Below, piece by piece: positions 16,803 to 63,443 of a stretch of DNA of 64,000 bases (positions are counted from its first letter, which is position 1; each line of letters opens with the position of its first letter). A program made the position numbers and the translations under genes. Source of the stretch: a virus. Taxonomy: Duplodnaviria > Heunggongvirae > Uroviricota > Caudoviricetes. The stretch is taken from the IMG/VR virus record IMGVR_UViG_3300012346_000561, positions 14,358 to 78,357 of that record, one strand, 5' to 3'. The notes beneath the pieces are model-generated. The model ran no database searches, was not told the origin of the DNA, and saw only the letters and a program-made list of their open reading frames with translations.

Positions 16803-16820
16803 GTGATAATACGGTTTATT

Positions 16821-16827
16821 ATAAATA
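16821..16827 (-). promoter_or_regulatory. Putative late promoter TATTTAT (tape measure)
   Basis: 18 nt upstream of ATG. Confidence 0.55.
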
Positions 16828-18409: not shown

Positions 18410-18431
18410 TTTATTTTCTTATTATTTAATT

Positions 18432-18438
18432 ATAAATA
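18432..18438 (-). promoter_or_regulatory. Putative late promoter TATTTAT (tail tube)
   Basis: 22 nt upstream of ATG. Confidence 0.55.
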
Positions 18439-39747: not shown

Positions 39748-39781
39748 TACAAAATAGTTTATTTATAAATAGCAACTTACT

Positions 39782-40563: not shown

Positions 40564-42237
40564 TTATACAGTAGCTAAGTCGCTAACGAATACTTTACCG
40601 TAGAATTCTGGTCTGATCATTTTCTTAGCGTAACGAGTCATGATACCTTTTCTTGGAGTGAAGGTTTCTGGATCGTATACTAATGGAGTCATGATCAATG
40701 GAACGTATGGAGAATAAACAGCTCCTGTTTCCAAGAATTGAGATCCTCTGTAACCCATTAAGATTACGTTTTCAGTCATGTAAGGGTTTTTGTAAACTTT
40801 ATATCTAGAGTTTAAGTTACCTACTTTCTGAACTCCCATTGCGAATTCTAATTTGTCACCGTTTGTATCAGCTGCATATCCAGGAATTGATTCTAAGATA
40901 GTAGCTACAGTTGGAGAACATACTAAGAAGTTAGCTCCACCTCTTAAAGTTTTTTGGTGAATTTTGTTAGATACTTTTTGGATTTTAGTTCCTAAAGTTT
41001 GGAACCATTGTCCTTGAGTATTGTAGAAATCAGATCCAGCTGTTGACCAAGTTGATCCGTTCCATACTTTGTTATTCTCAGCTGACCATCTTTCAGTTGT
41101 AGCTGCATCTTGGATTAACATATCTAATAACTCTAAATCGATCTCCATAGAGATGTACTCAGATAATAATGATGTTAATTCTGCTTCAGCATCAATTGAA
41201 TGGTAAGCATTCAAATCTTGTGCGAACTCTGGAGTCCATTGAGCTTTTAATTTTCTTGTTTTAGCAACAATTGCTTCAGAAGCTAATGATACGTTGATTT
41301 CTGGGATAGAAATTGGAGCACCAGATGTGTTGTTTGATTCGTCTTCGAAATCACCTCTTGTAGTGTCAGTTGGTTGAGCAATATATTTCAAGCCTAAAGC
41401 TGTATTTGCATCAATATCTGTACTTCCTACAGTAATGAAAGAAATTGCACTTGTTGCAGAATTGTATTTAGTGTACTCATTGTAAACTGTTCCGAAATCT
41501 GTTGCAGCGTTTGTTGATGTTAAGATAAATGCTCTAACAGCTTCTAAGTCAGGACGAGTTAAGTCTGTCGCTAAGATAGTTACTTTTTTAACGTTAGCTC
41601 CGTTTCCTGCTGCAGCAATAGATGCTGAGAAGTCTACATCGTATCCGAAGTCTGAGAAGTTTGTGTTTAAGTTAACTGATGCAGTTGTGAATTTACCTGT
41701 AGCTAATGTTGCGTTTAACCCTGTAGCAGCAATTGCAAATGATGCAGTGTTGATAGAGTATCCGAATTTTCCTGCTCCGTAAAGACCTTCTGATACTTCT
41801 TCGTCAACTGACATTTTAGCGTTAGCGTTAGAAACATTACCATATAAGCTTTCTGAAGTTGTTCTTCCTTGTACTGCTGTACCATATTTGAAGTCTAAGT
41901 AGAATACTAGACCTGAAGGTAAGTTCATTGGTTGAACAGAAACGAAATCTTTAGAAGCGATTTGAGCGAATACTTTACGTACTAATGGTAAAGCAACTCC
42001 AGCCCATTGTTCAGCGTTAGCTGTACCTGTACCCATTGCACCGTTTCCAGTTACGTTAGCTTCAGATACTAATTGTTTTGCTTGATTCTCAAGAATCATA
42101 GCCATGTTGTTTTTCTCGATTTCATTAGAAATTCCTTCTAATAAACCTGTAGCACCCCATTTACCAGATAAACGAGCAGCATCTGCTTGTAAAGTCTTGT
42201 AGTTGTTAGAGCTCTCTAATAATTGATTTAATTCCAT
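40564..42237 (-). CDS. Major capsid protein (gp23-like)
   Basis: LPLVRKVF, VSVQPMNLPSGLVFYLDF, AKTRKLKAQWTPEFAQDL.AYH.IDAEAEL, YSPYVPL, TRYA. Confidence 0.97.
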   Translation of the reverse strand: MELNQLLESSNNYKTLQADAARLSGKWGATGLLEGISNEIEKNNMAMILENQAKQLVSEANVTGNGAMGTGTANAEQWAGVALPLVRKVFAQIASKDFVSVQPMNLPSGLVFYLDFKYGTAVQGRTTSESLYGNVSNANAKMSVDEEVSEGLYGAGKFGYSINTASFAIAATGLNATLATGKFTTASVNLNTNFSDFGYDVDFSASIAAAGNGANVKKVTILATDLTRPDLEAVRAFILTSTNAATDFGTVYNEYTKYNSATSAISFITVGSTDIDANTALGLKYIAQPTDTTRGDFEDESNNTSGAPISIPEINVSLASEAIVAKTRKLKAQWTPEFAQDLNAYHSIDAEAELTSLLSEYISMEIDLELLDMLIQDAATTERWSAENNKVWNGSTWSTAGSDFYNTQGQWFQTLGTKIQKVSNKIHQKTLRGGANFLVCSPTVATILESIPGYAADTNGDKLEFAMGVQKVGNLNSRYKVYKNPYMTENVILMGYRGSQFLETGAVYSPYVPLIMTPLVYDPETFTPRKGIMTRYAKKMIRPEFYGKVFVSDLATV

Positions 42238-43825: not shown

Positions 43826-44062
43826 TTATTTTACAAGGTCTAATGTCGTAATCACTTCCTCTAACGTGGCCTCAATGTCGTTGAATTCACTTTCATTTGA
43901 AGGTATTTGATTCTGCTGCTTGTATTGCTCTAGTGTTGCTAAGGCAGATTGTAAATGCTTTTGTACCTGTTGAGCTGTAATGGCTTGAGCTGACTCCTCG
44001 TTTAGAATTGATTTATTTAAGTAGTTTGCTTGCCACTTATGTATGTCAAAATTACTTTCCAT
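43826..44062 (-). CDS. Small putative head protein
   Basis: 78 aa; FDIHKWQANYL..SILNEE N-terminus. Confidence 0.7.
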   Translation of the reverse strand: MESNFDIHKWQANYLNKSILNEESAQAITAQQVQKHLQSALATLEQYKQQNQIPSNESEFNDIEATLEEVITTLDLVK

Positions 44063-44643
44063 TATGCTCTTAGTATGTTGTTAATGATAGAATCTAATCT
44101 ATCGTATTTTCCTACTTGTACTTTTCCTTCGTTTAGTGAAATTGGATTCATGAAAGCTCCTTGTGTAGAAGGATTAGAAACGAAATCCCAGCATACTAAT
44201 TCAAAGTCTGGTTGAACCATTAAAGTTCCTTCGTTTGTTTGTGATACTGATCCTGTTCCTCTTGAAGAGATTCCTATTGTATGTCCTCCTCTTAATATCT
44301 CTTTTACGATATTTCCTGAAGGTGTGTTTAGTAATTCTACTTTACCCATTAAGTCATCACCTTCCCACCATAAGTCTTTTACAACGTGGGATGCATTCTT
44401 TAAAGATACGATTGCTGATTCTGGGTGATCTAATTCTCCATAAGCATTTCCAACTTTAACAAAGTTTTCTACGTAGGCTCTTACTTGATCTTCAAGTATT
44501 TCTCTTTTGTAGATTCTTCCGTTTTGGTTCTTAGCTCCTGCTCTTTGCATAATTCCTACTACCTCAAAAACACCTGGTTTGGTTTTTGATTCGGTAAGAA
44601 GTCCTTTGAAAGGAGTTACGTTTATTAATAGTGGATTGTTCAT
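44062..44643 (-). CDS. Prohead protease (gp21-like)
   Basis: NQNGRIY, AYGELDHPE, SH, G.V.LL.TPSG.I, GISSRGTGS, WDFVSNPST..A. Confidence 0.93.
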   Translation of the reverse strand: MNNPLLINVTPFKGLLTESKTKPGVFEVVGIMQRAGAKNQNGRIYKREILEDQVRAYVENFVKVGNAYGELDHPESAIVSLKNASHVVKDLWWEGDDLMGKVELLNTPSGNIVKEILRGGHTIGISSRGTGSVSQTNEGTLMVQPDFELVCWDFVSNPSTQGAFMNPISLNEGKVQVGKYDRLDSIINNILRA

Positions 44644-46796: not shown

Positions 46797-46822
46797 AGTA
46801 TTTATGTGTTTGTTATAAATAT

Positions 46823-48691
46823 CTATTGATTATCTAAATCTTTAATATTATCTTCGTTAAGTAAATCTGACTCGCTTTCTTGTGCTTTTTCGAAAATTAA
46901 TTTCTTAGTTGAATGAAAGATATCTTTATTTCTTAAGAACACTGCTTGAGTATTGTTTAGTCCTTCTTTTACATTTTCTGCATCACTTGGATTGCCACCT
47001 TTCATTCCCTGTACTCCTAATCTGTCTCTTCCTCCTGCTGGATCAGCTTGTGTTCCTAGTATTGACATTTTTTCTCTTGGTCGGCCTTCTGGTTGTGCAT
47101 CTCTTTCATCATATCCTGTAGGAACTTCTCCTCTTGGTCTGTCTCCATATAAAGAAGCTAGATCGTGAGGTGTTCCATAAGATTGTCCTGATACAATTGG
47201 ATCGTTTCCTTCGTTCTCAATCTGAGATATTCTAAACTCTCTCTTAGCATCTTCTCTTACAAGCTCTCTCATTTCGTTGTAAGTATCTTCTGATAAGTTG
47301 AAGATGTTATCGTAAATATAATCTGAAGAGAACAGTTTTGTTTCTTGCATTTGACGAGCAAGATCAATCTTCTCTTTTAGTAGAGCTACTTTCTCTTGTT
47401 CAAAAATTATAGATGGATTTGTTAATTTAATCTCAAAGTTGGTTAAAGATTCACCTTTAAATCCTTGAGCATATAAGTGTACTAATCCAATTTTAGTTAA
47501 TTCACTTTCTATAATTCTTTGAATTCTTTCTACTGATCTAGCAAATCGAATATCTTCTGCTGCTAAAGTTGCTTTACCTGTTAGATCTTTTTCAAATCCA
47601 AAGTATGCTTTTGGCACTTTTAATGCAGCAAAAAGTTTATCTCTTAAGTACTCGATATCATTTGTACCATCGTACTCAAGTCCTTTTGTAGTCTCAATTC
47701 TTGTAGTTGCATCCCCTCCTCTTACTGGTATGTAGAAGTCTTCCATCATGTTTTGCATGTTGAAACGTAAATTGTACTGTCCTGTTTGAGGATCTACATA
47801 AGGAGTTTTCTTAATGTTGCTGATAGTCTTTTGCATGAACTGCTCAACTTCATTTGGTGGAATTTGTCCTACATTAACAAAGAACGTTCTCTTTTCAGGA
47901 GCTCTCATGATTCTGTGAATCAACATTGCATCCTCCATAAGAGTTAATTGTTTGTAAATTTTACGAGCTGGTTCAATATAAGATCGACCGTATGGTAGGT
48001 AATTTGTATCTGATATTAATCTGAAGTGAGCAACTTCGTAGTTGTCAAGTGTGATTACTTGTCTGTTTGAGTTTGGGATGTAGTTTGGATCTGCTGATGA
48101 TGCTAATCCGTCTGGGTCAATTACAAACTGTACTTTTGTTGGGTTGTCTTTGTCAACTCCTTCAAATCTTGACATGTGGTACACTGTATATGGTAACACA
48201 TTGTATACTCCAAACTCTTCTGATATTTCTAATTTTAAAAAGAAGTCACCATACTTACACATATTACGTGTCCAAGACCATAGGTTAAATTCTATATTAA
48301 GAATGTCGTAGTATAGGTTATATAAAACTCTTTGAATGTTTTCGTCTGATGATTTAATGGATAAAACCTCACCCATGTCATTCTTTAAACTTGCCTCATC
48401 TGCTAAAATGTCTAATGTTGATGCAATAAGTGGATCAGTGTCCATTGCTTCATAGTCTGAGTATAGTTGAACCCTTAGTGTTTGGTAGTTTAAGTTTGGA
48501 TTAAATATATTCTTGTTATTGTATATGTATAATCTCGAAAATCTATCAAGTAGTGCATTTGTTTGATACTTTCCTGTAGTTTGTATATTGTTAGTATCTG
48601 CAATCTTCAATTGATCTCCTCCTACATTCCTTACAAGTATGTCTGTAGAGAACAGTCTCTGTAAAGACGAGAATAGATTTGTTTCTGCCAT
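46823..48691 (-). CDS. Portal protein (gp20-like)
   Basis: YEAMDTDP.I...LDI.ADE, MEDAMLIHRIMRAPEKR.F, EDF.IP.RG, T.I.T, L..AL.VP. Confidence 0.95.
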   Translation of the reverse strand: MAETNLFSSLQRLFSTDILVRNVGGDQLKIADTNNIQTTGKYQTNALLDRFSRLYIYNNKNIFNPNLNYQTLRVQLYSDYEAMDTDPLIASTLDILADEASLKNDMGEVLSIKSSDENIQRVLYNLYYDILNIEFNLWSWTRNMCKYGDFFLKLEISEEFGVYNVLPYTVYHMSRFEGVDKDNPTKVQFVIDPDGLASSADPNYIPNSNRQVITLDNYEVAHFRLISDTNYLPYGRSYIEPARKIYKQLTLMEDAMLIHRIMRAPEKRTFFVNVGQIPPNEVEQFMQKTISNIKKTPYVDPQTGQYNLRFNMQNMMEDFYIPVRGGDATTRIETTKGLEYDGTNDIEYLRDKLFAALKVPKAYFGFEKDLTGKATLAAEDIRFARSVERIQRIIESELTKIGLVHLYAQGFKGESLTNFEIKLTNPSIIFEQEKVALLKEKIDLARQMQETKLFSSDYIYDNIFNLSEDTYNEMRELVREDAKREFRISQIENEGNDPIVSGQSYGTPHDLASLYGDRPRGEVPTGYDERDAQPEGRPREKMSILGTQADPAGGRDRLGVQGMKGGNPSDAENVKEGLNNTQAVFLRNKDIFHSTKKLIFEKAQESESDLLNEDNIKDLDNQ

Positions 48692-48709
48692 TTGTGAATT
48701 TGTTTATTT

Positions 48710-48716
48710 ATAAATA
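48710..48716 (-). promoter_or_regulatory. Putative late promoter TATTTAT (portal)
   Basis: 18 nt upstream of ATG. Confidence 0.55.
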
Positions 48717-51358: not shown

Positions 51359-51385
51359 TGTAGTTTATTTTTGTTTATAAATAGT

Positions 51386-52459
51386 TTATTTTTCCGTTGT
51401 CACTTTTGTAAATGATAATCTAGGTACCAAATCTGAGAATGCTGTTACAAATACATCTGTACCTACTGCAGCTGCTATATCGTCTTCTGTGTAGAATATT
51501 TTATAGTCTCTGTCTTCATTAAAAAAGAATATTGGTTCATTGATAGTCTTTATGTAATCTTTAGCAAGTTCCTTTGCTATCTGCGATCTAACGGCAGTTA
51601 CTGATGTCGTGTCTGCATCACCTATCTTAATTGCACCTTTATAGAACTTGTCTAATACTTTCTGAATTTGTGATTTATCTTGAGTGTGTCTAATCAACTT
51701 GTCAGTCCAAACTCCTCCTCCTTGTTTAAAACTTGCCACTTCATCTTCAGGGACATCCAACACTCTAGCCATATCCGTCAATATCTTATCAGCTGTGTAG
51801 CCTCTTGATATATGTTTTGCTACTGCAAGGATTGCATCTTTTCCTTTAAACTCAATAACCTTACTACCTGCTTGCACATCTCCTTTTTTTGGACTACTTG
51901 TGTCGTGTAAAAATGCTATTACTGCAATCTCTCCTTTACCTACAGATTTTTGTCCTGCTCCTACTGTCAATCCTATTATTGCATTTATGTAGGTAGCATC
52001 TATACCAGTTAGTTGTTGCAGCTTTGTTGATAGATTACCTTCTGATCCTAAGCTGTCAAATGTGTTGGCAGGATTGTTGATTGAGTCAAGTACTTTATCT
52101 TCAAAGTGATACTTATCTGCGTAGCTTGCCACAATTAGTGCTTGTTGATGGTTTAATTTCTTAGTTTGCTCTAAAGCAGTTAAAAGTGACTTAGTATATC
52201 CATTTCCTGTCTTACTTACAATCTTATACAGGTTGTTTATCTGATCTTGTGTTAGCTCTGTCTTTCTGGCATCAATAAGATCTTGTAAATTTTGAAAAGA
52301 TATATTGTTTTGTTGAGGTTGGTCCTCTTCGTTCAGTCTGATACCAAATTCGGAATAAATCTCTTTCAATATTTTCATATCGTCAGGATTATTCACGTCT
52401 GGGTATCCTTTCTTACAGCGGAAGGCCCATTCTGTAACTATCTTATCTACTACGTTCAT
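51386..52459 (-). CDS. Putative head protein with PD-(D/E)XK nuclease-like C-terminal domain
   Basis: N-terminal KIVTEWAFRCKKGYP; C-terminal GKGE...GDVQAGSKVIEFK. Confidence 0.55.
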   Translation of the reverse strand: MNVVDKIVTEWAFRCKKGYPDVNNPDDMKILKEIYSEFGIRLNEEDQPQQNNISFQNLQDLIDARKTELTQDQINNLYKIVSKTGNGYTKSLLTALEQTKKLNHQQALIVASYADKYHFEDKVLDSINNPANTFDSLGSEGNLSTKLQQLTGIDATYINAIIGLTVGAGQKSVGKGEIAVIAFLHDTSSPKKGDVQAGSKVIEFKGKDAILAVAKHISRGYTADKILTDMARVLDVPEDEVASFKQGGGVWTDKLIRHTQDKSQIQKVLDKFYKGAIKIGDADTTSVTAVRSQIAKELAKDYIKTINEPIFFFNEDRDYKIFYTEDDIAAAVGTDVFVTAFSDLVPRLSFTKVTTEK

Positions 52460-53421
52460 TATAGTGATGTTGGTGTTTCATCTTCTGCTCCTCCTGCTTC
52501 TGCTCCTGGTTCTTCTGCTCCAAAATCTGCTGGTGCTTCTTCTGCTCCTCCTGCTGCAGGTGCTGCTGCATCTACTGGTGGTTCAGCTGCAAAAGCATCT
52601 CCTCCTGGCTCTTCACCTTGTGAGATTGGTCCGTCTTTAAGTATTCTGTTAATACTATCAAGAGCTTGTTGGTAATCTGATGTGTTGTTTAGGAAATATC
52701 TTTTGCCTTCAATGTTTGCTTCGAATCCTTTTCCTGTCCATCTTAAGTCAAATGTCTGTCCATTTTTAAGAGCAACCATAAAAGTAGATGGTTTTGGAAC
52801 TGTCCATTTTACATCTTCTACGAACTCATCAAATTCGTGTGTGAATAAAGATACTAAAGTTTTCTTTACTGTTGGAAATTTTCCTAAGATTTCTTGCGTT
52901 GATGTTTTTAGTACAGGTGCTTCTACTTCTGTAAGAGCTTGTACATATGCTTCTATTATTATGTTCCTTAATTGTGCTTTATTCATCTTATTCTCTTTTA
53001 CAGGTGCTACAAAGTGTCCTTTATATTTCTTTTTTAAATATTCTTCGAATCTTACATTTATATCAAACGAATTATCTAAAGGAGTTTCATCTGGTATTCT
53101 CGATATCGTGTCTGATAGTTCTTGGAAGAATCCTGCTTCAACAGTATCATCTACTATCGCTGCTGTTTGATCATCTATATCTAATTTATCTAGCCAAGTA
53201 TTTGTCTTTTGTGTGTCTGGTTTACTTCCTATTGCTTTGAAAATGTCCCATGTTTTTTTCGCAGCTCCTATTCCCGGTATTACAGCTCCTAGTAAGTCGA
53301 CAGCTATGTCTACTCCTTGGTCCTGCAGTGTTCCTTTAACATTATTAAACAAATTCTTTTTTGTGAGTTTGTTTATTATGTTTTTTATATCACCATATGT
53401 CTTTAGCTCTACTTTAGCCAT
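52459..53421 (-). CDS. Two-module putative head protein (apparent fusion)
   Basis: Internal [18 protein letters not shown] resembles free N-termini of neighbouring genes. Confidence 0.7.
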
Positions 53422-54683
53422 TATTTGTATCCTAAATTAACAAAAGATTTTCTAATTGCAGCCTCTAACGATCCTCTTCCAATTTTTCCTGGAGGTACTC
53501 CTGTTGATTTTATCCACTCCTCGAATGCTGCTTGAAACTCTGTTATATTGTTTATGTTCTTTAGTTTAGATTGTACTGAGGTTGCTGATTGTTGTGCTTT
53601 TTGCAAGGCTGCTACATCTGCTGGTGCTGCTGCTTCATCTACTTTGTCGTATTTACAGTTTTGTTTACCTGTGAAGTATGGAGTAGGGTGTGGTGTTCCT
53701 TTTACATGAACATGTCCACATTTGTGACAGCAAGTACCTTTCTTTTCGTTCAACGCCATAGTTGCCACTACTGTATTGTCCATCTGTTGTACTTTCTCTT
53801 CACCATCTAAGTATCCGTAAGCTGCTTGAAGGTAATCGTATGCTTTTATAATTTTTGCTTGCCACCAGTGTGGAAAATCTACCTCCTGTTCGTTATCGTA
53901 GTTGTCAAGTTGCTTGTATAACATAGAAGCCATCTTAGCAATTCGATAAACATCTTTCTTAAGCATTGCAGGTTCATCATCCTGATGTCCTACATCTAGA
54001 TCTTCGTTTTTAAATTTAACTCCTCTTCCTTTTAGTACATCCGCTCTAGTTATTTCACCATCTCCTGTTAGGTCTTCTAACTTCTTTTCATTCAACTCTC
54101 TTGCAAGCTGTGAAGGATCTGTTGGTGTTTGCATTGCTGCCATATCATCATACTCTTCATCTGAAGGTTGCGATACATATTTTACCATCGCATCTGATAA
54201 TTTATCCTCTAATGCTGGCGTTGGAAGTGATACTTCATTTCCTTGAGTGATTATGAAATCTGATAATTGAATATCCTCATTTCCTAAATCTAGGTGGATT
54301 GCTTTGGTGTCTGGGTTTAGTGTAAATCTGAACGTGTCTTGACCTTTGTCTTGTCCATACTCAACGTGGATGTTGAATTTGTTTACTCCTAATCCTGTTA
54401 GTTTAATACTTTTTAGCTCATCTCCTTGAGCTCTTAGAACTTTAATTAATGATTTAGCTACTTCTTTTCCCACAGCTGCAGATTCTTGAGTAGTGTAAGT
54501 TCCTCCTACTTGCTCTTTAATCTTCTTACCATCTCCAGTACTTATTGACTTAATATCTTGATTGTCTTTTATGTCTTTTAGATCTTGATCAGATTTGTAG
54601 TCAATTGTTTTCTTTTCACCTTTTGATGTTTGTATAAAGGCTGTTTTTTCTCCTGCTTCAAGTAGTTGCATTAATTTTTTCAT
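53421..54683 (-). CDS. Multi-module putative head protein
   Basis: MKKLMQLLE; [12 protein letters not shown] loop; DDEPAML...WWQAKI..A.DYL module; CCHKCGHVH metal-binding motif. Confidence 0.7.
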
Positions 54684-54759
54684 ATTGTAATATCTAAAGA
54701 TAGTTATTTTTAATCATATATACAAATAAATAGTAATTTTTTATGTAAGTATATAAATA

Positions 54760-55152
54760 CTATTCTATTGAAGAAAGTTTATCGTAATATTTAGGATCTT
54801 CATACACATGGTCAAAAGCTATTTCCATAGCAATATCCAAATCTGTTGTGTGTTCTGATTCTACCTTTACTCCTTTTATTATTTGCTTTATGATTTGATC
54901 TAAAGGAAGTTTGTGCATTGCAGCTAAATCTCCTATAGTGGCATGTTGTGCTAGACCTCCTGGTATGTTGTTGGGAGCAGGTGTCGAAGCATCCAGACTT
55001 TCTTCTGTAATTTTTATACAGATGTCTTTCCCGTCTTTTGTACCTCCATACCTGTACCCTTTCCAACAAGCCTTACCATCTGATCCTTTTGCTTTTTCGC
55101 TAAGAACTTCTTTTAGTACTTGCTGTAGGTATGTGTTATTTACCTTGCCCAC
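54760..55152 (-). CDS. Putative head protein with CWKGY module and KGVKVESEH module (DUF5661-like)
   Basis: VLKEVLSE; CWKGYRYGGTKDGKDIC; KGVKVESEHT.D...A.EIA.DH..EDP.YY.KL; GTG start overlaps the upstream small ORF. Confidence 0.65.
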   Translation of the reverse strand: MGKVNNTYLQQVLKEVLSEKAKGSDGKACWKGYRYGGTKDGKDICIKITEESLDASTPAPNNIPGGLAQHATIGDLAAMHKLPLDQIIKQIIKGVKVESEHTTDLDIAMEIAFDHVYEDPKYYDKLSSIE

Positions 55153-55279
55153 GGTAAAGTTTTTTATAGTTTTTAGAACTCTTTAACGAAGATGTTTTAG
55201 ATTTAGCGTGAACACCTGGTCTTGATACTTTCGGTTTATCTACTTTTGTAACTGTAGAAGCTGCTTTTACTTTTGCCAT
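55136..55279 (-). CDS. Small very basic protein (47 aa), below ORF-track cutoff
   Basis: MAKVKAASTVTKVDKPKVSRPGVHAKSKTSSLKSSKNYKKLYRGQGK; ATG 20 nt after TATTTAT motif. Confidence 0.75.
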   Translation of the reverse strand: MAKVKAASTVTKVDKPKVSRPGVHAKSKTSSLKSSKNYKKLYRGQGK

Positions 55280-55308
55280 GAGAATTTATCTTTTTACAAT
55301 AAATATCT

Positions 55309-55887
55309 CTAATCTTCTAAATGCTTTTTAACGTGTTGTAGAAATTCTTTAAGATCTTGTGTTAGTTTTGTATCTGTATGATGTTTGTTACTGTTCCAGT
55401 TTTCAATATCTCCTTGCTCTGTTACAAATGTGTCAACGTCGCTTATGCTATCTAATACAAATTGCTCTACATCTCTCATGAAAGCTCTTAAGCTGCCTTG
55501 TATCATTGCCTTTTCGTATGCATCATAAAGTCCTGCTCTTTTCAACTGTGCTTCGTAATCTATGACACAATTAAAACACATCTTATGAATCTTATACATT
55601 TTCTGGCTGAGGTGGTAATTCATTGGACCTCCACACTTTGGACATGCTAGTGGTATCTGCATTGCTTTTTTAGCAGCATCTAGCTTTGTTATATTCTGTC
55701 TGATTCCATTTTTGATTGTCCAGGTTCTTCCGTTCTCTTCCCACACATCACCCTCTTTGTACGCAACTTGTGCTTTGGAGTATCCTATTCCATCTACTGT
55801 CTTTGCTGAGTAATCCTTTGATATTAAATTTCTAGCTCTGTTTACGTCTCTTGATTTGAATTCTTTTTTAAGTAAGCTTTCGCCCAT
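55309..55887 (-). CDS. Zinc-finger protein of unknown function
   Basis: YKEGDVWEENG..W..KNG; CPKC...CFNC. Confidence 0.75.
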   Translation of the reverse strand: MGESLLKKEFKSRDVNRARNLISKDYSAKTVDGIGYSKAQVAYKEGDVWEENGRTWTIKNGIRQNITKLDAAKKAMQIPLACPKCGGPMNYHLSQKMYKIHKMCFNCVIDYEAQLKRAGLYDAYEKAMIQGSLRAFMRDVEQFVLDSISDVDTFVTEQGDIENWNSNKHHTDTKLTQDLKEFLQHVKKHLED

Positions 55888-56455
55888 AACCGAGTTGTTT
55901 TAATTTATTAATAACCGATTGGATTTCTCCATCTTTTACCTCTAATGCTATCCCTCCTTTACTAGCAAATGCTGATAGGTTGGAAGGTTTGTCATCTATT
56001 AATATAGCTTTTTCATTTGCAAAATCCGACTTAGCATCTCCAAATCTAAATTCTACAGGAGGAGCTGGTACTAAGTGGTCTTTTACCCACAGTCTTTTTC
56101 CAAGTCTCGAAGTATTCTGTCTCGATGGTGAAGTTAATATTGTAGGATTGTATGGTTGTATAAAATTCCACAACTGTCTACCATTTGGCATCCATTCCAT
56201 TCCTGACCAGAATTCTACTCCTAAGTGGTTGTCTATAAAGTTCCAAAACTCAGTTTCTCCTTCTAGTGCACTAAAGTGCTTAGGTCTCGTAACTTTTGCA
56301 ATTACTTCTTTTGAGTAATATTTTGGACCTTCTTGTTTTAGCATGTCAACAAATCTTTTTTCAAAATTCGTTAACACTCCATCCATATCACAGTATATCT
56401 TATACGGTGGATTGAAGTCTTCTTCTGTCAATAATAAATCTACTAAATTTCCCAT
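55868..56455 (-). CDS. HAD-family 5'(3')-deoxyribonucleotidase-like phosphatase
   Basis: Motif I CDMDGVL, motif II ILTS, conserved K, motif IV ILIDD. Confidence 0.85.
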   Translation of the reverse strand: MGNLVDLLLTEEDFNPPYKIYCDMDGVLTNFEKRFVDMLKQEGPKYYSKEVIAKVTRPKHFSALEGETEFWNFIDNHLGVEFWSGMEWMPNGRQLWNFIQPYNPTILTSPSRQNTSRLGKRLWVKDHLVPAPPVEFRFGDAKSDFANEKAILIDDKPSNLSAFASKGGIALEVKDGEIQSVINKLKQLGYGRKLT

Positions 56456-56468
56456 AACCTTTTTACTT

Positions 56469-59195
56469 TTATAATGTTTGTCTTATTCCTAATGCTGGCA
56501 TTCTGTCACGCCACAATTTTAATATTTTTTGTTTTTGTCTTGGACCTAATTCTTGTGAGTCTAAATATGTGTTGACTACATCTGCGAAAGGCTTTCTTTC
56601 TTTTTTAGCTCTGAATAGTAGTCCTTGTAGGTTTGCATCTATTTCTTTGTCTAAATGAAAGTATTGATTTCTTCTTGATTTTCTAGCTTTGATCCAATCT
56701 CTTTTCTCCGAATCATCTTCCATTCCTTTGTTTGGATTAGATGTAGGACCTCCTATATTATGTGTAAGATGTTCGATTTCATGTCTTACAATATCTTTTA
56801 GAGTCATAGAGATTTCTTCCCAACCCTCAGGTAGCATTTCTTCATCGATATCTATGTCGATTCTTATAAAATCTCCTTTCTTATCTGTTCCTGCTCCAGT
56901 TGTGTCAATAACTTCCATTTTTTCTGTTTCGAAAGTTAATTCTAGAGTTGCTTCTACATCAAACTTTCCGCCTAATGCTTCATATGTTTTTTTAAACTCT
57001 ACCCCTTCTTCTCCTGAATCTATTGCTTGTTTCCAAGCTCTAAATACATCCGAAGAAACCATGTTTGATAATTTGTCGTATTTACCTTCTGCCATAACCT
57101 GTTTATTTTGTTGTCCATATTTGCAACTATCTGTCCATTCTCTGAAAACCATGTTACCTTCTAAGTATGCCTCTCTTTCTATCTCCTGTAGATATTCATC
57201 CTCGTTTACATTACTGGTGTTAATTCTACCTCCACCTATTCTTCCTTCTAGGTTTTGAATATGGTGAATCATTTCATGAGTGAATGATCTACAAACATCT
57301 TTTGGATGTCTTCCTAATGTGTATAGTACTACTTCCATACTGTCTGGTCTGTAGTACGCTGTTTTTCCAAAGAAGTCTGAAGCTTCTTCTTGATCCTGTT
57401 TAAGTTTAATATCAGGTAAAGGTAGTATATTCATACCTCTATCAATCATAAACTCTAAGATTGATGCTATCTTTTCTGTGTAATTAAATGGCTGCTCTTC
57501 TTGCTCTTTAATTGGTTGTTGTCTTGGTGTGTAATCAAATGGAACATCTTTACCTGGTTTTGTTAGAATAACAATTCGGTCTTGTTGAAATTCCATATTG
57601 AACATATTTCTATCAACACTTGGTATTAGTGAGTTGTATAGATCTTGCAGATCACCTCTATCTTTGGATGTAATTACTGATGCAGGTTGTAAGGGTATTG
57701 CACGTCCACCTGCTTCTTTTAGTTGTTTCTTTTTAGCAGTTTGCGGAAAAAAGCTTGCAAATACTTCATCAATCGTATCTACCATCTTATCTTCAATTGA
57801 TGGTTCTTGTTGTGGCATAACAATGTCTACAACTGCTTGCTTATCTGCTTTTGATAGTACTGCTGGAGTCCATTTAGCACTTGTTAAATATTGCTCTGAC
57901 TGTCTTATTTGTGTTGCTGAGAATTTATCATCCTCTTTTGCCACTATAACAGGTAAGTCTTTCAATTCTACTTTTGGATACTTGTCAGTATTTTTAATGA
58001 TGCTTGCAAACTTTCCTTTTTCGTCTGCCATCGTTCCTGTTATAATTTTATCAACTTCTGGTTGGTTCTGATCTATCCAATCGTAGATGTCTTTGATTGG
58101 TGTAACTTGACTCAGTACAATTTCAACAGGTGTTGCTAAATACTTAGCATAAATTTCCCAAATAGCTTTTGATTGTTCTGCAGTAATTTTTACTCCTTCT
58201 CGAACTTTAGGTCCAATAAAGATTATTAATTTATCTGCATTTTGTGATAACAGTTTAGCATTTTCAAAGTGTGCTTTATGTGGTGGCTTAAATCCTCCTG
58301 CATATAGTGCAACTGTTATTGATTGATCATCCAAAGCTTCTGAAAGAGTTTGTGCTACTTTTTCAAGTGCATCTTCTTTTCCTTTTCCTTTAGCTGTTCC
58401 TACTTCTCCTGACTTAACGGATACCATTGATTTGAATATACCTGCTATTCTATTTTTAGATCTAGCATTTGTAAGTTTTCTTGAAATATCGTCCAACAAG
58501 TCTTCAAAAGATCCATCTATATTAAATCCTCTAAATAATATTTTAATAGTACCCCAATTAGTTGTTGACCAAATCTCCTCTCTTGCTACTTCTTTGAAGT
58601 TTTCAAGTTTTACTTTTCTTAAAGATAATTTTACTGATGATAGGTTGAATTCATACTCCTCTCCTTGTTCAAGTTGTGGAAGATTTGAGATACCCATTCT
58701 TCTAAATACTTCATCAGGGTTCTCCTCCAGTAAAATAACTTTTGCAAGTCCAATTAACAATCCTTGTTTTTCTGCTGGTAGATCTAAGAATGACCCCTTA
58801 AATACGGACTCTTCTTCTGTAAGTGCAATTATGTTATCTACTTGAATAAATTCATCTGCTTTTCCTTCAATTGGAAATAGTACTGAGATTAATTCTCCTG
58901 AGTTGTAGTATCTTCTTCCTGTATACTTTTCAGATTTAAAAGGAACAATTATATTGTTTGGAAGTTTTGTTACTGCATCAATAATTCTTTGCTTTACTTC
59001 CTTTTTATCATCTCCTTCAAACCAAGTGATTATGTCTAAGTCTCCAAAATCAGCTTTTGACCCTGCTTTAACAGATCCTGATAATGAAGCTTTTTTAAAT
59101 CCAGGAATATGCTTAAGTACCTCGTCTATGTATTTGTTGAACGTGGCTTGTACATCCTGCTTTAGTATTCTATTTCCTCCTGCTACTCCTGACAT
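56469..59195 (-). CDS. Multi-domain protein: Pol-beta nucleotidyltransferase, HIGH-motif cytidylyl/adenylyltransferase, two HExxH zincin-like domains
   Basis: GS(40-41)..DLD(52-54)..QVD(120); GGFKPPHKAH(300-309) and SATQIR; HEMIH(640) with EREAY; HEIEH(805) with EIDAN. Confidence 0.8.
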   Translation of the reverse strand: MSGVAGGNRILKQDVQATFNKYIDEVLKHIPGFKKASLSGSVKAGSKADFGDLDIITWFEGDDKKEVKQRIIDAVTKLPNNIIVPFKSEKYTGRRYYNSGELISVLFPIEGKADEFIQVDNIIALTEEESVFKGSFLDLPAEKQGLLIGLAKVILLEENPDEVFRRMGISNLPQLEQGEEYEFNLSSVKLSLRKVKLENFKEVAREEIWSTTNWGTIKILFRGFNIDGSFEDLLDDISRKLTNARSKNRIAGIFKSMVSVKSGEVGTAKGKGKEDALEKVAQTLSEALDDQSITVALYAGGFKPPHKAHFENAKLLSQNADKLIIFIGPKVREGVKITAEQSKAIWEIYAKYLATPVEIVLSQVTPIKDIYDWIDQNQPEVDKIITGTMADEKGKFASIIKNTDKYPKVELKDLPVIVAKEDDKFSATQIRQSEQYLTSAKWTPAVLSKADKQAVVDIVMPQQEPSIEDKMVDTIDEVFASFFPQTAKKKQLKEAGGRAIPLQPASVITSKDRGDLQDLYNSLIPSVDRNMFNMEFQQDRIVILTKPGKDVPFDYTPRQQPIKEQEEQPFNYTEKIASILEFMIDRGMNILPLPDIKLKQDQEEASDFFGKTAYYRPDSMEVVLYTLGRHPKDVCRSFTHEMIHHIQNLEGRIGGGRINTSNVNEDEYLQEIEREAYLEGNMVFREWTDSCKYGQQNKQVMAEGKYDKLSNMVSSDVFRAWKQAIDSGEEGVEFKKTYEALGGKFDVEATLELTFETEKMEVIDTTGAGTDKKGDFIRIDIDIDEEMLPEGWEEISMTLKDIVRHEIEHLTHNIGGPTSNPNKGMEDDSEKRDWIKARKSRRNQYFHLDKEIDANLQGLLFRAKKERKPFADVVNTYLDSQELGPRQKQKILKLWRDRMPALGIRQTL

Positions 59196-59196
59196 A

Positions 59197-60105
59197 TTAT
59201 TTCTGATATTGTATTAAGTTTGAATTATCTGGTAGGAATTTACCTTTCAGTGCTAACCTTTCTTGGTTGTCTATCCAGTAAGATTGTAGGTCTTCTGGTA
59301 TGTCTGCTCTTGTACTGTCTAATATTTTTAGATAAGTATCATACACTGCATGTAAATCCTGTGGAGATAATCCTGCCTCTAACGCTTCTATTAGTTTGAA
59401 ATAATCTCCTATGATATCTCTATCGAGATTTAGGTCATATAATTTGTTTAGCAACTCTATTGCCTGCTGTGGAGTGTTTGCTACTATCTCTTGAGTTTCT
59501 TTACTCTTTACACCATAGTTATGAGAAAATGTATACCCTTTATGTGAGAATAGTGATACAAGTAATTGTGTTCTATGCAATCCTTTTACGTTTCCTGAAT
59601 ACGTAGCTGAATGGTAAGCGAATTCTAACCAATCAACATCTCCTACATTTACATCTATTTGAACGTTTTGTCCTACAGCTTCTTTAGTTTCATCGTATTG
59701 AGGAAACAATAAGAACAGTGCTCCAGCTGAAGATCCTTTTACGTCTGCTATAATTTCTGTATCAGCTTGTGAAATCTTTTCTGCTACTGCTACTATAACT
59801 GATCTTTTCATTAATTGATCATCAGTAGAAGTTCTAGCTCTTTTCTTGAAACCTTCGAAAAGTTTCATGATATGATCTCTATCCAATCCCCAATCCTCAA
59901 CATCATCAAAGGATGACCCAGCAAGTGCTAGGTCGATGTCCCCTGAATAATCTTTTTTTCCTACAGATCCTAACGTCTTCATTTCTCTGAAGAATGGTTC
60001 TGCTTTTGGAAATATTGTTTTAAACTGTCTAAAGAACTCTAATAGAGTTGGTTTAATATCCTCTTTCTTTATCGGTGCTGTACTATCAAATACGTTTCCT
60101 CCCAT
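59197..60105 (-). CDS. Pol-beta-fold nucleotidyltransferase
   Basis: MGGNVF; LGSVGKKDYSGDIDL; VQID third aspartate. Confidence 0.82.
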   Translation of the reverse strand: MGGNVFDSTAPIKKEDIKPTLLEFFRQFKTIFPKAEPFFREMKTLGSVGKKDYSGDIDLALAGSSFDDVEDWGLDRDHIMKLFEGFKKRARTSTDDQLMKRSVIVAVAEKISQADTEIIADVKGSSAGALFLLFPQYDETKEAVGQNVQIDVNVGDVDWLEFAYHSATYSGNVKGLHRTQLLVSLFSHKGYTFSHNYGVKSKETQEIVANTPQQAIELLNKLYDLNLDRDIIGDYFKLIEALEAGLSPQDLHAVYDTYLKILDSTRADIPEDLQSYWIDNQERLALKGKFLPDNSNLIQYQK

Positions 60106-60126
60106 GTTATCTATTTAATGTTTGTA

Positions 60127-60155
60127 AATATACGAAGATTATTTCGAATATCCAA
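60127..60155 (-). promoter_or_regulatory. Host-type promoter upstream of nucleotidyltransferase pair
   Basis: TTGGAT-N17-TATATT; TATTTAT motif also at 60168-60174. Confidence 0.6.
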
Positions 60156-60177
60156 CGATTATATTAAATAAATAGTA

Positions 60178-60960
60178 TTAAAGTTTGATAGTAGTTGGGT
60201 ATGTAGCGAATTTTGGTTCTGTTGATGGATTATCTATTTCATACAGCTTATAGATTAACTTGAATAGTTCAAAGTTTTCCTCAATGTTATCTATTACTTT
60301 TAATTCCCATCCTTTACCTTGAATCTTTTTACCACTCTTATCTTCTCCTCGTGTTGAAGCTTTTAACCAAAGGATAGCTGTTCTATCAATTTTGATTCCT
60401 TTTGTTTCTTCAATCGACTTAGCATATGCTGCAAGTTGTAGATCGTATGACTTGTGTAAACTGTTTGATGTTTTAAAATCGATCAACCAATACTCTCCAT
60501 CTATCTTTACAACTAAATCGGCAGTACCTGCATACTTGTGTTCGTCTGAGAATGTAAACTCTTCTGTGAAGATTAACTCTGGTTTTACCATATCCCAGAA
60601 TTGTTTAAATTTAAGAATCATTCCCCACACTAATTCATTGTAGCGAGCATTACCATACTCATCCATCCATTGAACTTCTTTTCCTTCCAGTAACTCTTCA
60701 ATTGCATTGTGAACCTGAGTACCTTCGTCTCCTGCTCTTCTCATTATGATGTCTGCATTGTGTCCTACATCCTTAATCCAATTTTCAAAGAACTTATTCT
60801 TTGGCATGTGTTGTAGTACTGTTGTTACCGATGGGTAATACACCCCTTCCGATCTTTGGTAAACTCTCCTATCTAAGAAGTTTATCTGCTTAAGTTCAGG
60901 TTTAAAATCTAACCTCTTTTTCGAATGCTCCGATAAGATGTTTGCTCCTTTTTGTATCAT
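60178..60960 (-). CDS. PD-(D/E)XK exonuclease (RecB/Cas4/lambda-exo-like)
   Basis: YPSVTTVL, GTQVH, YAGTADLV, IDFKTS, QLAAY. Confidence 0.88.
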   Translation of the reverse strand: MIQKGANILSEHSKKRLDFKPELKQINFLDRRVYQRSEGVYYPSVTTVLQHMPKNKFFENWIKDVGHNADIIMRRAGDEGTQVHNAIEELLEGKEVQWMDEYGNARYNELVWGMILKFKQFWDMVKPELIFTEEFTFSDEHKYAGTADLVVKIDGEYWLIDFKTSNSLHKSYDLQLAAYAKSIEETKGIKIDRTAILWLKASTRGEDKSGKKIQGKGWELKVIDNIEENFELFKLIYKLYEIDNPSTEPKFATYPTTIKL

Positions 60961-60961
60961 G

Positions 60962-61882
60962 TTATGATAATTTATAGCGAAGAAGTTTTCCTAAGTCCAT
61001 TTCTTCTGCTTGTTGTACGTAACGAGTGAATTTTTCAAATCCCATCTCGCTTGGATCTTTGTCTTGCATATCTATTAGATATACTTTTTTTCCCATATTT
61101 AAAAACTGCTCTGTATATTGCAATGCTTTCTTAAATGCATCTTTATCCAAAGCAATGTATATGTCTTCTAATTCGCTTGATACAATCTTCTTTATAAGAG
61201 CTGTTGATAAGCTCTTACCTAAAATTGGTACTGCGTTTCTTCTCACTGCAATAGCATCAAATACTCCCTCAACTAATACTATTGGCATGTTCCAATTGAT
61301 TAAGTTTTCGAATCCTATGATATCTTTTGATGTTTCTGGATTTCTATATTTGTGGTATGCGTCTTCAAATGTTCTTGCAACAAAGAAGTTTAGCTGGTTG
61401 TTTTCATTGTATGATGGTACTATGATCCTCCCTGCATATTCTCCCGTATTGCAATATCCTATATTGTATTTTATAAAATCTTTATCTGTAAATCCTCTAT
61501 TATACAAATACTTTCTTACTTTATTTGCTATGATAGAAGTTGTTGATGCATTGTATATTGGTTGAAATTCTTTTGGAAGTTCTACTGCTTTTACAGGAGC
61601 ATACTGTCGCTCCTCTCCTCTTCCAATATACTTTAGGATTTCATGTGCTTGTTCAGCTGGTACTTGTAGTTGTTTTAGTAGAGATCGTATTGTTCTGCCT
61701 TTGAACCCACACACCCAACATTCGAAAGGATTCTCTCCTTTTTCATTTGTGTGAAAGTTTATCTCTAATTTTGGTTTATGGTGATTGCATTTAGGACAAG
61801 TGAAAGCATAGTTTTCCCTTGCTCTCTTGTGTGACTTTCCTAGAATATTTTCAATAAAACCTAATAGTATTTGACTACTCAT
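60962..61882 (-). CDS. DNA primase (DnaG-type)
   Basis: Zn finger CPKC..H...CWVC; RIIVP; TOPRIM VEGVFDA, ALDKDA, DPSE. Confidence 0.9.
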   Translation of the reverse strand: MSSQILLGFIENILGKSHKRARENYAFTCPKCNHHKPKLEINFHTNEKGENPFECWVCGFKGRTIRSLLKQLQVPAEQAHEILKYIGRGEERQYAPVKAVELPKEFQPIYNASTTSIIANKVRKYLYNRGFTDKDFIKYNIGYCNTGEYAGRIIVPSYNENNQLNFFVARTFEDAYHKYRNPETSKDIIGFENLINWNMPIVLVEGVFDAIAVRRNAVPILGKSLSTALIKKIVSSELEDIYIALDKDAFKKALQYTEQFLNMGKKVYLIDMQDKDPSEMGFEKFTRYVQQAEEMDLGKLLRYKLS

Positions 61883-61908
61883 ATTTGTATGTATACACTT
61901 TAAAATAT

Positions 61909-61940
61909 AAGATACAAAAAAAGACTTGAATAAACAAGCC
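61909..61940 (-). terminator. Intrinsic terminator overlapping a promoter for primase
   Basis: GGCUUG-UUUAUU-CAAGUC-U7; same bases read TTGTTT-N17-TATCTT; near-copy of 7839-7870. Confidence 0.75.
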
Positions 61941-61955
61941 TTTCTTTAATTATTT

Positions 61956-62396
61956 TTATACGTCTACTACCTTTATCCTACCTGCCTTATCTTGCATTAT
62001 GTTATCCATCTTAATCGAACCTCCTGGTCCTTCTAAGTCTGGGTATATTCCTAACTTTTCTGCTTCTTCCATTATATCATCGATTGGAACATCTTGTTCA
62101 GACCCTGTGAAAGGCTCTAGATTATCCATTGTGATGATTCCTAGTTTTGGATTTCTAACCTCTACATCGTATATGTATACAAAGTATTTAGTCTTTTGTC
62201 CTTTTATTTGTTGTGCATCTTCTAATTCTTCTGAATCAGTAGTTACTTTTTTTACTCTATCTCCTACTAAAAATACTGCTCCATAATCTCCTTCCCCTAA
62301 ATACTCTCCTCCTTCATCAACAATATTGTTAACAAGTTCTTGGTATTCTTGAGTTGGTGTGATTACCTCTTTTAGTATTTTATGAATGCTAATCAT
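61956..62396 (-). CDS. Minimal protein-kinase-like protein (start revised to ATG at 62396, 146 aa)
   Basis: GEGDYG loop, VKKV lysine, EELE helix, IITMDNL hinge, PDL...DNIM, KVVD; TAATG overlap with upstream stop. Confidence 0.7.
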   Translation of the reverse strand: MISIHKILKEVITPTQEYQELVNNIVDEGGEYLGEGDYGAVFLVGDRVKKVTTDSEELEDAQQIKGQKTKYFVYIYDVEVRNPKLGIITMDNLEPFTGSEQDVPIDDIMEEAEKLGIYPDLEGPGGSIKMDNIMQDKAGRIKVVDV

Positions 62397-62977
62397 TAGT
62401 CCAGTCCTCCAGTTCTTCCTGCTTCTCTTTCGCCAGCTAACCAAGATGCTTTACGTCTAGTAGATGTTTCTTTATCTGCTATGAATTCTGGGTTGTTAAT
62501 TTTTACTTTATTGAACCAGATTGTTTCTTCTGGGTAGAGTACTACCTCCACATTTCCATACTCCTCTCTAGTTCCGTCTTTCCATCTTTCTAAACTGTCT
62601 TCTGAGTTTATTTGGGTTAATGAATCGCTAGGATTAGGGAAAGATAACTGTCCGTACTTTTCTCCAAAATTTGGAAAAACTTCTTTGATCTTATCGACAG
62701 TTAAATCGTCTAACATTATAGAGACTTTATTAGAAGCTTCTTCGTAGATTGGATCTTCACCTCTAGTAATTCTAGCTACATTATCCGGATTTGCTTTATC
62801 TAAAATTGCATTTCCTCTTTCAGCATCTCCTTCGTACTCTTCTTGATCCACCTCTTTAGCTATTGCAGTTAGGATTCGCATGAACTCATCTGAAGTACCT
62901 CCTTTAGTTTTACCTATGTACTTTGAATACCCTTGTAACTGTTCTCTGATTATTTCTGCTAGTTGTGATCTTTTCAT
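62396..62977 (-). CDS. Putative head protein
   Basis: MKRSQLAEIIRE N-terminus; second module after IYEE. Confidence 0.7.
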   Translation of the reverse strand: MKRSQLAEIIREQLQGYSKYIGKTKGGTSDEFMRILTAIAKEVDQEEYEGDAERGNAILDKANPDNVARITRGEDPIYEEASNKVSIMLDDLTVDKIKEVFPNFGEKYGQLSFPNPSDSLTQINSEDSLERWKDGTREEYGNVEVVLYPEETIWFNKVKINNPEFIADKETSTRRKASWLAGEREAGRTGGLD

Positions 62978-62980
62978 TAT

Positions 62981-63070
62981 TTACTTTCTTTTATATTCCT
63001 CGATAATTAAGTACACACCTAATGCAAGCACTGCTGCTATCCAATAATAGGCTATGTCTCCTCCGTCCAT
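62981..63070 (-). CDS. Small single-TM protein (29 aa), below ORF-track cutoff
   Basis: MDGGDIAYYWIAAVLALGVYLIIEEYKRK; fills the gap; stop 3 nt before next ATG. Confidence 0.55.
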   Translation of the reverse strand: MDGGDIAYYWIAAVLALGVYLIIEEYKRK

Positions 63071-63089
63071 TAGAATGTTGTAGTTAATA

Positions 63090-63185
63090 TTACTTTTTCT
63101 TAGGTTTAATTATAAATAGTAAGGTGTTTAATAGAATTGCAAAAGCACCTAGTACTATTATTCCTGCTATTATATCTTGTACCAT
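63090..63185 (-). CDS. Small single-TM protein (31 aa), below ORF-track cutoff
   Basis: MVQDIIAGIIVLGAFAILLNTLLFIIKPKKK; TAATG coupling to upstream stop. Confidence 0.6.
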   Translation of the reverse strand: MVQDIIAGIIVLGAFAILLNTLLFIIKPKKK

Positions 63186-63442
63186 TAGTATTCTTTTATT
63201 CTTATGTTTAAATATCCTGTTCCTTTTATCAATCTATGGTACGTCTCTTTTGGTATGAATACTTTTTCTTTTAGAGGTTGAGGTAATTCATTATCAAACT
63301 GAAACATCCAATCTGTTGGTTCTAGTATTTCTACTTCCCTGTCATTCTGATCTCTGTGCCATACCAGTTCTTGCTCTGGGATGTTTTGAGTAAATTTTCT
63401 ATAAATGTACTCCTGTGTCTGTAACTGTTTATAAGGTCTCAT
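63185..63442 (-). CDS. Cupin-like small protein (start revised to ATG at 63442)
   Basis: ELVWHRD..DR.V.IL...DW.FQFDNELP..L...VFIPK..YHR.IKG. Confidence 0.65.
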   Translation of the reverse strand: MRPYKQLQTQEYIYRKFTQNIPEQELVWHRDQNDREVEILEPTDWMFQFDNELPQPLKEKVFIPKETYHRLIKGTGYLNIRIKEY

Positions 63443-63443
63443 T

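Follow-up and report, generated by a model that had tools for sequence, protein, structure and literature searches.

A five-module phage protein with prohead-protease-type sites at its module boundaries, a candidate capsid-cargo polyprotein

Does a phage protein that joins several unrelated enzyme domains in one chain act as that chain, or is it a precursor that the prohead protease cuts into separate enzymes inside the head? The question is raised by a 908-aa protein (P0001) encoded in a 64,000-nucleotide stretch, here called the window, that spans positions 14,358 to 78,357 of the Caudoviricetes record IMGVR_UViG_3300012346_000561. The source record is 156.9 kb long and has ~81% DNA identity to the Flavobacterium myophage vB_FspM_immuto. 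The open reading frame (ORF; 56469..59195, minus strand) runs from ATG to stop without interruption. An original prediction, made from the letters of the stretch alone, had described four enzymes with protease-type sites at their junctions, packaged as one chain and cut by the prohead protease. Its motifs all lie where it placed them: the junction motifs QTLSE286↓A, KQLKE494↓A, QPIKE564↓Q and QVMAE703↓G (arrows mark the start of a module or of a putative mature chain), the nucleotidyltransferase (NTase) signature GS..(11)..DLD at residues 40–54 with a third Asp at 120, the HIGH-like GGFKPPHKAH at 300–309, and HExxH at residues 640 and 805. Its NTase, HIGH-type enzyme and first zincin also hold, but there are five modules (A-B-C-D-E), residues 495–564 being a module, C, and not a linker. 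Three of the five modules have good predicted enzymatic assignments, one has a probable one, and C has none. The ortholog in immuto (immuto26A_183, 65% identical to the 908-aa protein) is annotated merely as ‘nicotinamide mononucleotide adenylyltransferase, NadR’, a label that fits about one fifth of the chain. On balance, we favour the reading that the 908-aa chain is a capsid-cargo precursor processed by the prohead protease, and the pattern of sites across the family carries most of the argument.

The protein belongs to a large family, with >2500 matches in each of two protein searches and >595 loci in IMG/VR. For boundary statistics, we used 150 representatives of clusters at 50% identity, placed module starts by profile alignment and took the random-position baseline from the same proteins. 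A [LIVMF]-x-E motif lay within 3 residues of 273 of the 299 internal module starts (91%), compared with ~15% of random positions. The preference was specific at both key positions: when Glu was swapped for Asp, Gln, Lys, Asn, Ser, Arg or Thr, the motif occurred at 3–15% of boundaries (5–10% for Asp, Gln and Lys), and with a non-hydrophobic P3 at 4–12%. The pooled site profile had Leu (68%) or Ile (18%) at P3 (86% together), often Asn at P2, and Gly, Asn, Ser or Ala at P1′. Inside module cores the motif was avoided, with 572 occurrences of L/I-x-E observed vs 880 ± 27 expected from composition-preserving shuffles (ratio 0.65); for L/I-x-D, -K, -Q, -N, -R, -S and -T the ratio was 1.0–1.2. If a site-specific protease is the selective force, sites should be enriched at boundaries and avoided within domains, as seen here, and at the level of sequence the comparison demonstrates, family-wide, selection for the site at module boundaries and against it inside modules.

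The same sites are the points at which the family has been rearranged. The 150 representatives show >20 architectures (BDE in 49, A with other partners in 24, ABD in 16, ABCD in 12, ABDE in 9, DE in 7 and BED in 6), with modules found alone, truncated, reordered or fused to others. Module limits were set by these natural truncations and fusions, in agreement with domain profiles derived from the protein. Module A begins M↓SG[SV][AI]G where it is N-terminal and is preceded by L/I-x-E in nine of nine internal or leader-bearing cases (for example, T-L-N-E↓SGSAGG). Standalone A proteins have their C-terminus at or a few residues from the junction-1 Glu. [LIV]-x-E precedes 20 of 23 module C starts, and L-N-E↓N is common at the start of module D. 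Among relatives that begin with module B, 45 carry a stereotyped leader of 11–16 aa, MNxLxKxL[IV]xx[IL]LxE↓, which resembles the T4 capsid-targeting sequence. Variants of ~1078 aa, in seven clusters (P0016, P0026, P0040, P0062, P0070, P0075 and P0093), have an extra module of ~170 aa inserted at junction 2, between B and C, with a site on either side of it, L-D-E↓G and L-E-E↓G. In total, at least seven modules that are unrelated to one another are bounded by the motif. The original prediction had pointed to relatives with split or reordered domains as informative, and the splits, fusions and reorderings found in them fall exactly at the junction sites.

One such rearrangement involves the neighbouring gene. 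Module F (P0272, 302 aa; 59197..60105, minus strand) is a second Pol-beta NTase-like protein that starts M↓GGNVF, and its gene ends (...LIQYQK, stop) one base ahead of the ATG of the 908-aa ORF (gene junction 59193–59199). In the metagenomic relatives P0176 and P0193, F and A are fused in one ORF; the joint reads T-L-N-E or K-L-N-E followed by SGSAGG, and the fused module F is itself preceded by [LI]-N-E↓GGNVF. The F and A arrangement therefore looks like a clean case of gene fission or fusion exactly at a protease-type site. Ser or Gly after Met favours removal of the Met. The alternation of Met and Glu at the starts of A and F would thus yield the same mature N-terminus whether a module is encoded alone or released by cleavage.

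The structure models agree with this division. In the whole-chain AlphaFold model, low-pLDDT segments cover residues 283–291, 464–474, 476–508, 547–568 and 693–704, and every junction site lies inside one of them. A separate AF2 model of modules D and E, folded with a diverse alignment (pLDDT 85), has a single disordered stretch, 696–702, directly ahead of E703↓G704. The expectation that domain boundaries would coincide with disordered linkers was thus borne out, with the four sites in low-confidence inter-domain segments and none of them in a folded core of the models.

At the level of individual junctions (all on the minus strand), an alignment of 128 full-length relatives showed that both key positions are kept. 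Junction 1, L284-S-E286↓A287 (58338..58346), has a hydrophobic P3 in 97% and Glu at P1 in 95%. Junctions 2, L492-K-E494↓A495 (57714..57722), and 3, I562-K-E564↓Q565 (57504..57512), lie in variable, gappy linkers, and despite this P3 stays hydrophobic (92% and 97%) while the identity of the residue changes; P1 is Glu in 94% and 91%. At junction 4, M701-A-E703↓G704 (57087..57095), 77 of 80 module-E starts read [LIVM]-x-E↓G[RK]YD. In 65 distinct relatives, the codons at junction 4 include four for Gly, five for Arg and two for Tyr, with silent positions varying freely, so the constraint acts on the protein and no conserved DNA recombination sequence is present in the family. Simple conservation of the four sites in the 128 close full-length relatives was 0.93–0.99, but most intradomain [LIVMF]-x-E motifs scored similarly high, making this comparison non-discriminating.

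We then consider what the sites would release. Module A (aa 1–286; 58338..59195, minus strand) is assigned to the Pol-beta NTase superfamily. Among 39 diverse members, Pfam matched NTP_transf_2 in 25, DNA_pol_B_palm in 23 and Polbeta in 21 (best E 3e-6), and G40-S41, D52-L-D54 and D120 are invariant in an alignment of relatives, fitting the superfamily pattern hG[GS]...Dx[DE] plus a third acid. The module also occurs alone, in proteins of 283–300 aa, or C-terminally in other proteins. The whole-protein model was poor across module A (pLDDT 30–50), and profiles of modules A, D and E had no significant match among PDB sequences.

Module B (aa 287–494; 57714..58337, minus strand) consists of a HIGH-type PPAT/NMNAT-like nucleotidyltransferase and a helical, Lys-rich tail (464–494). 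It was the only module for which Foldseek with the whole-protein model returned rows, and its matches were PPAT and archaeal NMNAT, scoring alike (E 1.4e-4 to 3e-4). A profile alignment with NadM (2qjt) spans the GxFxPxHxxH and SATxIR motifs, represented in the protein by H306-K-A-H309, with Ala for the Gly of HxGH, and S426-A-T-Q-I-R431. The Pfam CTP_transf_like match was weak (15–18 bits against a cut-off of 21). The model confirms the fold as that of a HIGH-motif nucleotidyltransferase; that the module is a true NMN adenylyltransferase, as annotated in immuto, is possible, with PPAT and NMNAT indistinguishable by score. Module C (aa 495–564; 57504..57713, minus strand) is predicted to be a small alpha/beta module that starts [GA]SSGTP in relatives; its own hidden Markov model (HMM) gave independent matches in 25 representatives, and it recurs in other architectures.

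Module D (aa 565–703; 57087..57503, minus strand) is a minimal zincin by its model, with HEMIH at 640–644 and E-x-E-A at 673–676. Structure alignment with VIA-align matched Wss1 (Z 8.1, rmsd 3.2, 101 residues aligned), SPRTN (7.6) and PprI/IrrE (7.4), and the top 50 rows were all zincins. H640, E641, H644 and E673/E675 are invariant among relatives, matches in BFVD were phage IrrE-like and SprT-like proteins, and weak Pfam matches were to DUF6782, Peptidase_M91, eCIS_core and MPTase-PolyVal. The modelled fold is Wss1/SprT/IrrE-like, and zinc-protease activity is predicted from it. Module E (aa 704–908; 56472..57086, minus strand) is a second HExxH domain, with RHEIEH at 804–809 and Glu851. RHExEH is conserved among relatives, with H805, E806, H809 and E851 invariant, and relatives of module E exist as standalone viral proteins of 206–241 aa. 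A comparison of D with E by hhalign gave a probability of 18%, around the motif only; just the active-site helix of E resembles D. Foldseek with the D+E model returned no row under E 0.08 against the PDB, and a structural search of the ESM Atlas found nothing beyond the protein's own family; in the fold-search lists the rows were filled by module D, so that E was barely probed.

A protease of matching specificity is encoded nearby. The window holds a T4-type head module comprising a gp20-type portal protein (46823..48691; Pfam Portal_T4, 1e-68), a gp21-type prohead serine protease (Peptidase_S77; 44062..44643; PF03420, 9e-34; phrog_207, 4e-51), an acidic scaffold-like protein and a gp23-type major capsid protein (40564..42237; Pfam Gp23, 1e-82), with the portal, protease and capsid genes on the minus strand, and a terminase is also present in the window. 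In the capsid protein, Q-L-V-S-E59↓A60 is, by analogy, a probable maturation site: it aligns just upstream of the first conserved block, like F-L-T-E65↓A66 of T4 gp23. We derived the T4 site from the lengths of the deposited chains, 521 aa for the precursor and 456 aa for the mature form, which differ by 65 residues. T4 gp21 cleaves after L/I-X-E (PMC9026906), which is the specificity seen at the module boundaries. In T4, an Asp at P1 stops processing and leaves targeting intact (PMC9026906). The protease gene lies ~12 kb from the 908-aa gene in this phage and among the stored loci S77 was present in L002 only, so we searched whole records instead: the S77 protease was found in four of four near-complete IMG/VR genomes carrying D+E, the one miss being a fragment that is 68% complete. 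In L002, the S77 gene is 8.5 kb from the gene for P0176, beside the terminase and a T4-type portal.

These observations suggest the following course of events. Five independently folding modules would be strung on flexible linkers, each linker bearing a hydrophobic-x-Glu site. The chain would first become part of the prohead core; since the prohead is where T4 gp21 acts (PMC9026906), cutting by the S77 protease implies that the chain is a core component. The gp21-type protease would then cut after Glu286, Glu494, Glu564 and Glu703, as the motif, its evolution and the L/I-x-E specificity of gp21 suggest. The 103-kDa chain would thereby give products of about 32, 23, 8, 16 and 23 kDa. The freed enzymes would stay in the head, enter the host with the DNA and act at the very start of infection. 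The most likely role is accordingly the delivery, at the start of infection, of two Pol-beta NTases (counting F), a PPAT/NMNAT-like enzyme and one or two zincins. Published comparisons have argued for frequent packaging of NAD and ADP-ribose enzymes, and of polyvalent effectors, in the heads of myoviruses (PMC9503650; PMC5512222). Two further suggestions of the original prediction, that the enzymes are delivered at fixed stoichiometry and that the zincins cleave host proteins, are speculation.

Several points weigh against processing in the head. The protein starts MSGVAGGNRI, the conserved start of module A, and so lacks an N-terminal capsid-targeting leader; the helix 271–286 ahead of junction 1 occupies the place of a leader and might, speculatively, substitute for one. 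The gene lies outside the head module, between replication genes (a primase and a PD-(D/E)XK nuclease) and an NT5C 5′-nucleotidase, a neighbourhood just as compatible with a cytoplasmic enzyme. Around junctions 1 and 4, the sequence as a whole is conserved. The representatives are homologous and their boundary counts are not independent events, hence we attach no P-value to the enrichment. The T4 late-promoter word TATAAATA was uninformative on expression timing, with 15 matches vs 8.1 expected, a marginal excess, and with the intergenic ones on the strand opposite to the genes. Finally, a literature search found no virion proteome or cleavage data for this phage, immuto or any relative. The claim of gp21-type sites at the junctions of a precursor thus gains from the comparative pattern, the specificity for Glu and the co-occurrence of S77, whereas packaging is a step that we infer and the expected leader is missing.

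The alternative that survives best is that the protein is an uncut, cytoplasmic multi-domain enzyme in which hydrophobic-x-Glu belongs to linker structure or helix capping, or reflects the way in which modules recombine. The replication and nucleotide-metabolism genes around it and its want of a leader would suit such an enzyme. The primase and the PD-(D/E)XK nuclease, moreover, also carry an N-terminal [LIVMF]-x-E, so the bare motif at an N-terminus is not specific. However, a structural linker explains neither why a single, chemically specific motif should flank seven or more unrelated modules nor the swap of Met for Glu at module starts, and it leaves the depletion of L/I-x-E inside modules unexplained; the free silent positions at junction 4 also speak against a recombination by-product. 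We regard an uncut enzyme as unlikely.

Less probable still is that the junctions are cut by the protein's own zincins, D, E or both, whether in cis or in trans and either in the cytoplasm or once injected. Module D has the full zincin signature and fold, E keeps HExxH and the conserved Glu, both rank among the most frequent modules of the family, and autoprocessing of polyvalent proteins by metallopeptidase domains was predicted by Iyer et al. 2017 (PMC5512222). Yet the same sites are kept in relatives without any HExxH (P0176, P0193, P0254, P0256, P0237 and P0258), and neither D nor E is encoded within 22 kb of the gene for P0176, which together make autoprocessing in cis by the zincins unlikely. 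The site profile, with Leu or Ile at P3 and Glu at P1, also matches the specificity of a gp21-type serine protease and the predicted capsid maturation site, and we know of no Glu-specific cleavage rule for zincins of the Wss1/SprT/IrrE type. Chance placement of four sites in a Glu-rich protein (8.9% Glu and 18 [LIVMF]-x-E sites, so that four near junctions are not significant within this single sequence) is hardly credible, being already contradicted by the 91% of 299 boundaries against ~15% of random positions and by the specificity for Glu and a hydrophobic P3.

A broader proposal, on which we are evenly divided, concerns a large group of aquatic T4-like phages, most of them uncultured, in which the site of the prohead protease would mark the limits of modules universally. 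Enzymes would be fused or split at L/I-x-E with the same mature form, and reshuffled ‘cocktails’ of injected enzymes would be encoded as polyproteins, with targeting possibly achieved through internal leader-like helices as well. If true, the proposal would give bacterial viruses a counterpart of the polyproteins of eukaryotic viruses. Cutting of the chain in the head would explain the mosaic nature of thousands of large phage proteins that are ‘hypothetical’ or mis-annotated (for example, the ‘NadR’ ortholog) and would provide a simple sequence rule for locating mature units in mosaic proteins. It would also extend T4-type targeting and processing past the trimming of leaders from single small proteins, and would let one gene load several enzymes in fixed proportion, delivered ahead of phage gene expression. 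Injected nucleotidyltransferases and zinc proteases would be candidate early host-takeover or counter-defence factors. Direct testing is feasible, as the close relative immuto is cultured with its host, Flavobacterium sp. LMO8. Apart from four immuto records, tblastn searches of cultured phages with the whole protein and with P0176 matched nothing, and a PHROGs search with the whole 908-aa protein returned no family.

A further shuffled module, absent from the 908-aa protein, was observed at residues 192–314 of P0161, a relative of B-D-E form. Its relatives, at 39–53% identity, are hypothetical proteins of the cultured Methylophilales phage Melnitz, Paraglaciecola Antarctic GD virus 1 and the Sinorhizobium phages phiM12, phiM7, phiM19 and phiN3, and phages that share this module could give experimental access to the module family. 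In the P0161 phage, a Zeta_toxin/AAA_33-type kinase, not module F, lies directly upstream (L003 9268–10017; L004 605–1354), so the slot upstream of the gene is variable. In the phage of P0176, the equivalent gene is 1.3 kb from the terminase gene.

Other genes of this phage also carry leader-like starts. Many ORFs at 50378–64000 of the window have a short N-terminal leader whose last residues are hydrophobic-x-Glu, such as MGNLVDLLLTE of the NT5C nucleotidase and MADNFNLRSFLTE. Between the portal and the protease, a 359-aa protein (44643–45722) starts MRTLQEKYNAIQE↓G, resembling the leader of a T4 internal protein. After the protease comes the acidic protein of the head module (465 aa; 42268–43665), which has an internal duplication (~NESL.G.VVDLLGV.NSQA.MILGV.GAMGLT, twice) and many [LIV]-x-E motifs, features as expected of a gp22-like scaffold. 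The word TATTTATA, the reverse complement of TATAAATA, occurs in gene sense 17–22 nt upstream of the start codons of the portal gene, the next gene, a 326-aa gene and several tail-region genes (46814–46821, 48709–48716, 51376–51383, 16820–16827, 18431–18438 and 39764–39771), and could belong to a late promoter or leader.

Elsewhere in the record (153049–156852), adjacent genes encode a PRPP-synthetase-like protein (301 aa) and a Nampt-like protein (501 aa), followed by a glucosaminidase-domain gene. We considered module B as the NMNAT partner of Nampt. An NAD cassette of this type needs no NMNAT, so a role of module B in NAD rescue is possible, with the cassette giving no support either way.

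How does the chain compare with known systems? At the level of single modules, B shares with the NMNAT/PPAT superfamily its fold and the HxxH and S-x-T-x-x-R motifs, but its similarity is below the Pfam threshold. Module D has the core fold, HExxH and downstream Glu of the minimal zincins (Wss1/SPRTN, IrrE/PprI, ArdC and minigluzincins); it differs in a moderate Z of 7–8 and in having no DNA-binding or sensor domains attached.

At the level of the chain, the closest parallel in head maturation is with T4 IPI, IPII, IPIII and Alt. The shared features are a T4-type head with an S77 protease, sites of L/I-x-E followed by a small residue, the 11–16-aa leader ending in L-x-E in relatives that begin with module B, and enzymatic cargo, as in Alt, which is processed at both termini (PMC9026906). 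The differences are that a T4 precursor yields one mature protein minus short propeptides, whereas five folded products are proposed here, that modules are swapped between genes at the sites here, and that the 908-aa protein has no leader. In the giant phages phiKZ, 201phi2-1 and SPN3US, a diverged relative of gp21 recognises a short motif and cleaves after Glu in many head proteins, sometimes at multiple sites in each (PMC10052503; PMC9026906). The extra cuts there mostly fragment long propeptides, whereas the sites described here separate recognisable enzymes, and P3 is Ala, Ser or Gly there but Leu or Ile here, as in T4.

The general class to which such a chain would belong is already published. 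Polyvalent proteins, described by Iyer, Burroughs, Anand, de Souza and Aravind in 2017, are shuffled multi-domain effectors predicted to be head-packaged and delivered at invasion (PMC5512222). As in that class, unrelated effector-type domains, including Pol-beta NTases and zincin-like metallopeptidases, are combined in one phage chain with mosaic architectures, and the polypeptide, from a phage with portal and terminase, has two or more unrelated effector-type domains (five modules, with >20 architectures in the family). As for the signature domains of the class, no MuF and no portal fusion was found in the 908-aa protein, the MPTase-PolyVal Pfam model matched 2 of 29 relatives weakly (E 0.059), and LPD23 came up only as an Atlas lead at 0.88. 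For polyvalent proteins, autoprocessing by metallopeptidase or Hint domains has been proposed, and not prohead-protease sites at every module (PMC5512222). The original prediction had known of no described protein with this architecture. That statement calls for a qualification: the protein has >2500 relatives, an annotated ortholog in immuto and a published class around it (PMC5512222). Our literature search found no description of a protease site delimiting every module of a multi-enzyme chain. What is new is the protease-type site that bounds each module and serves as the point of fusion, splitting and reshuffling, an element that is well supported as a sequence pattern.

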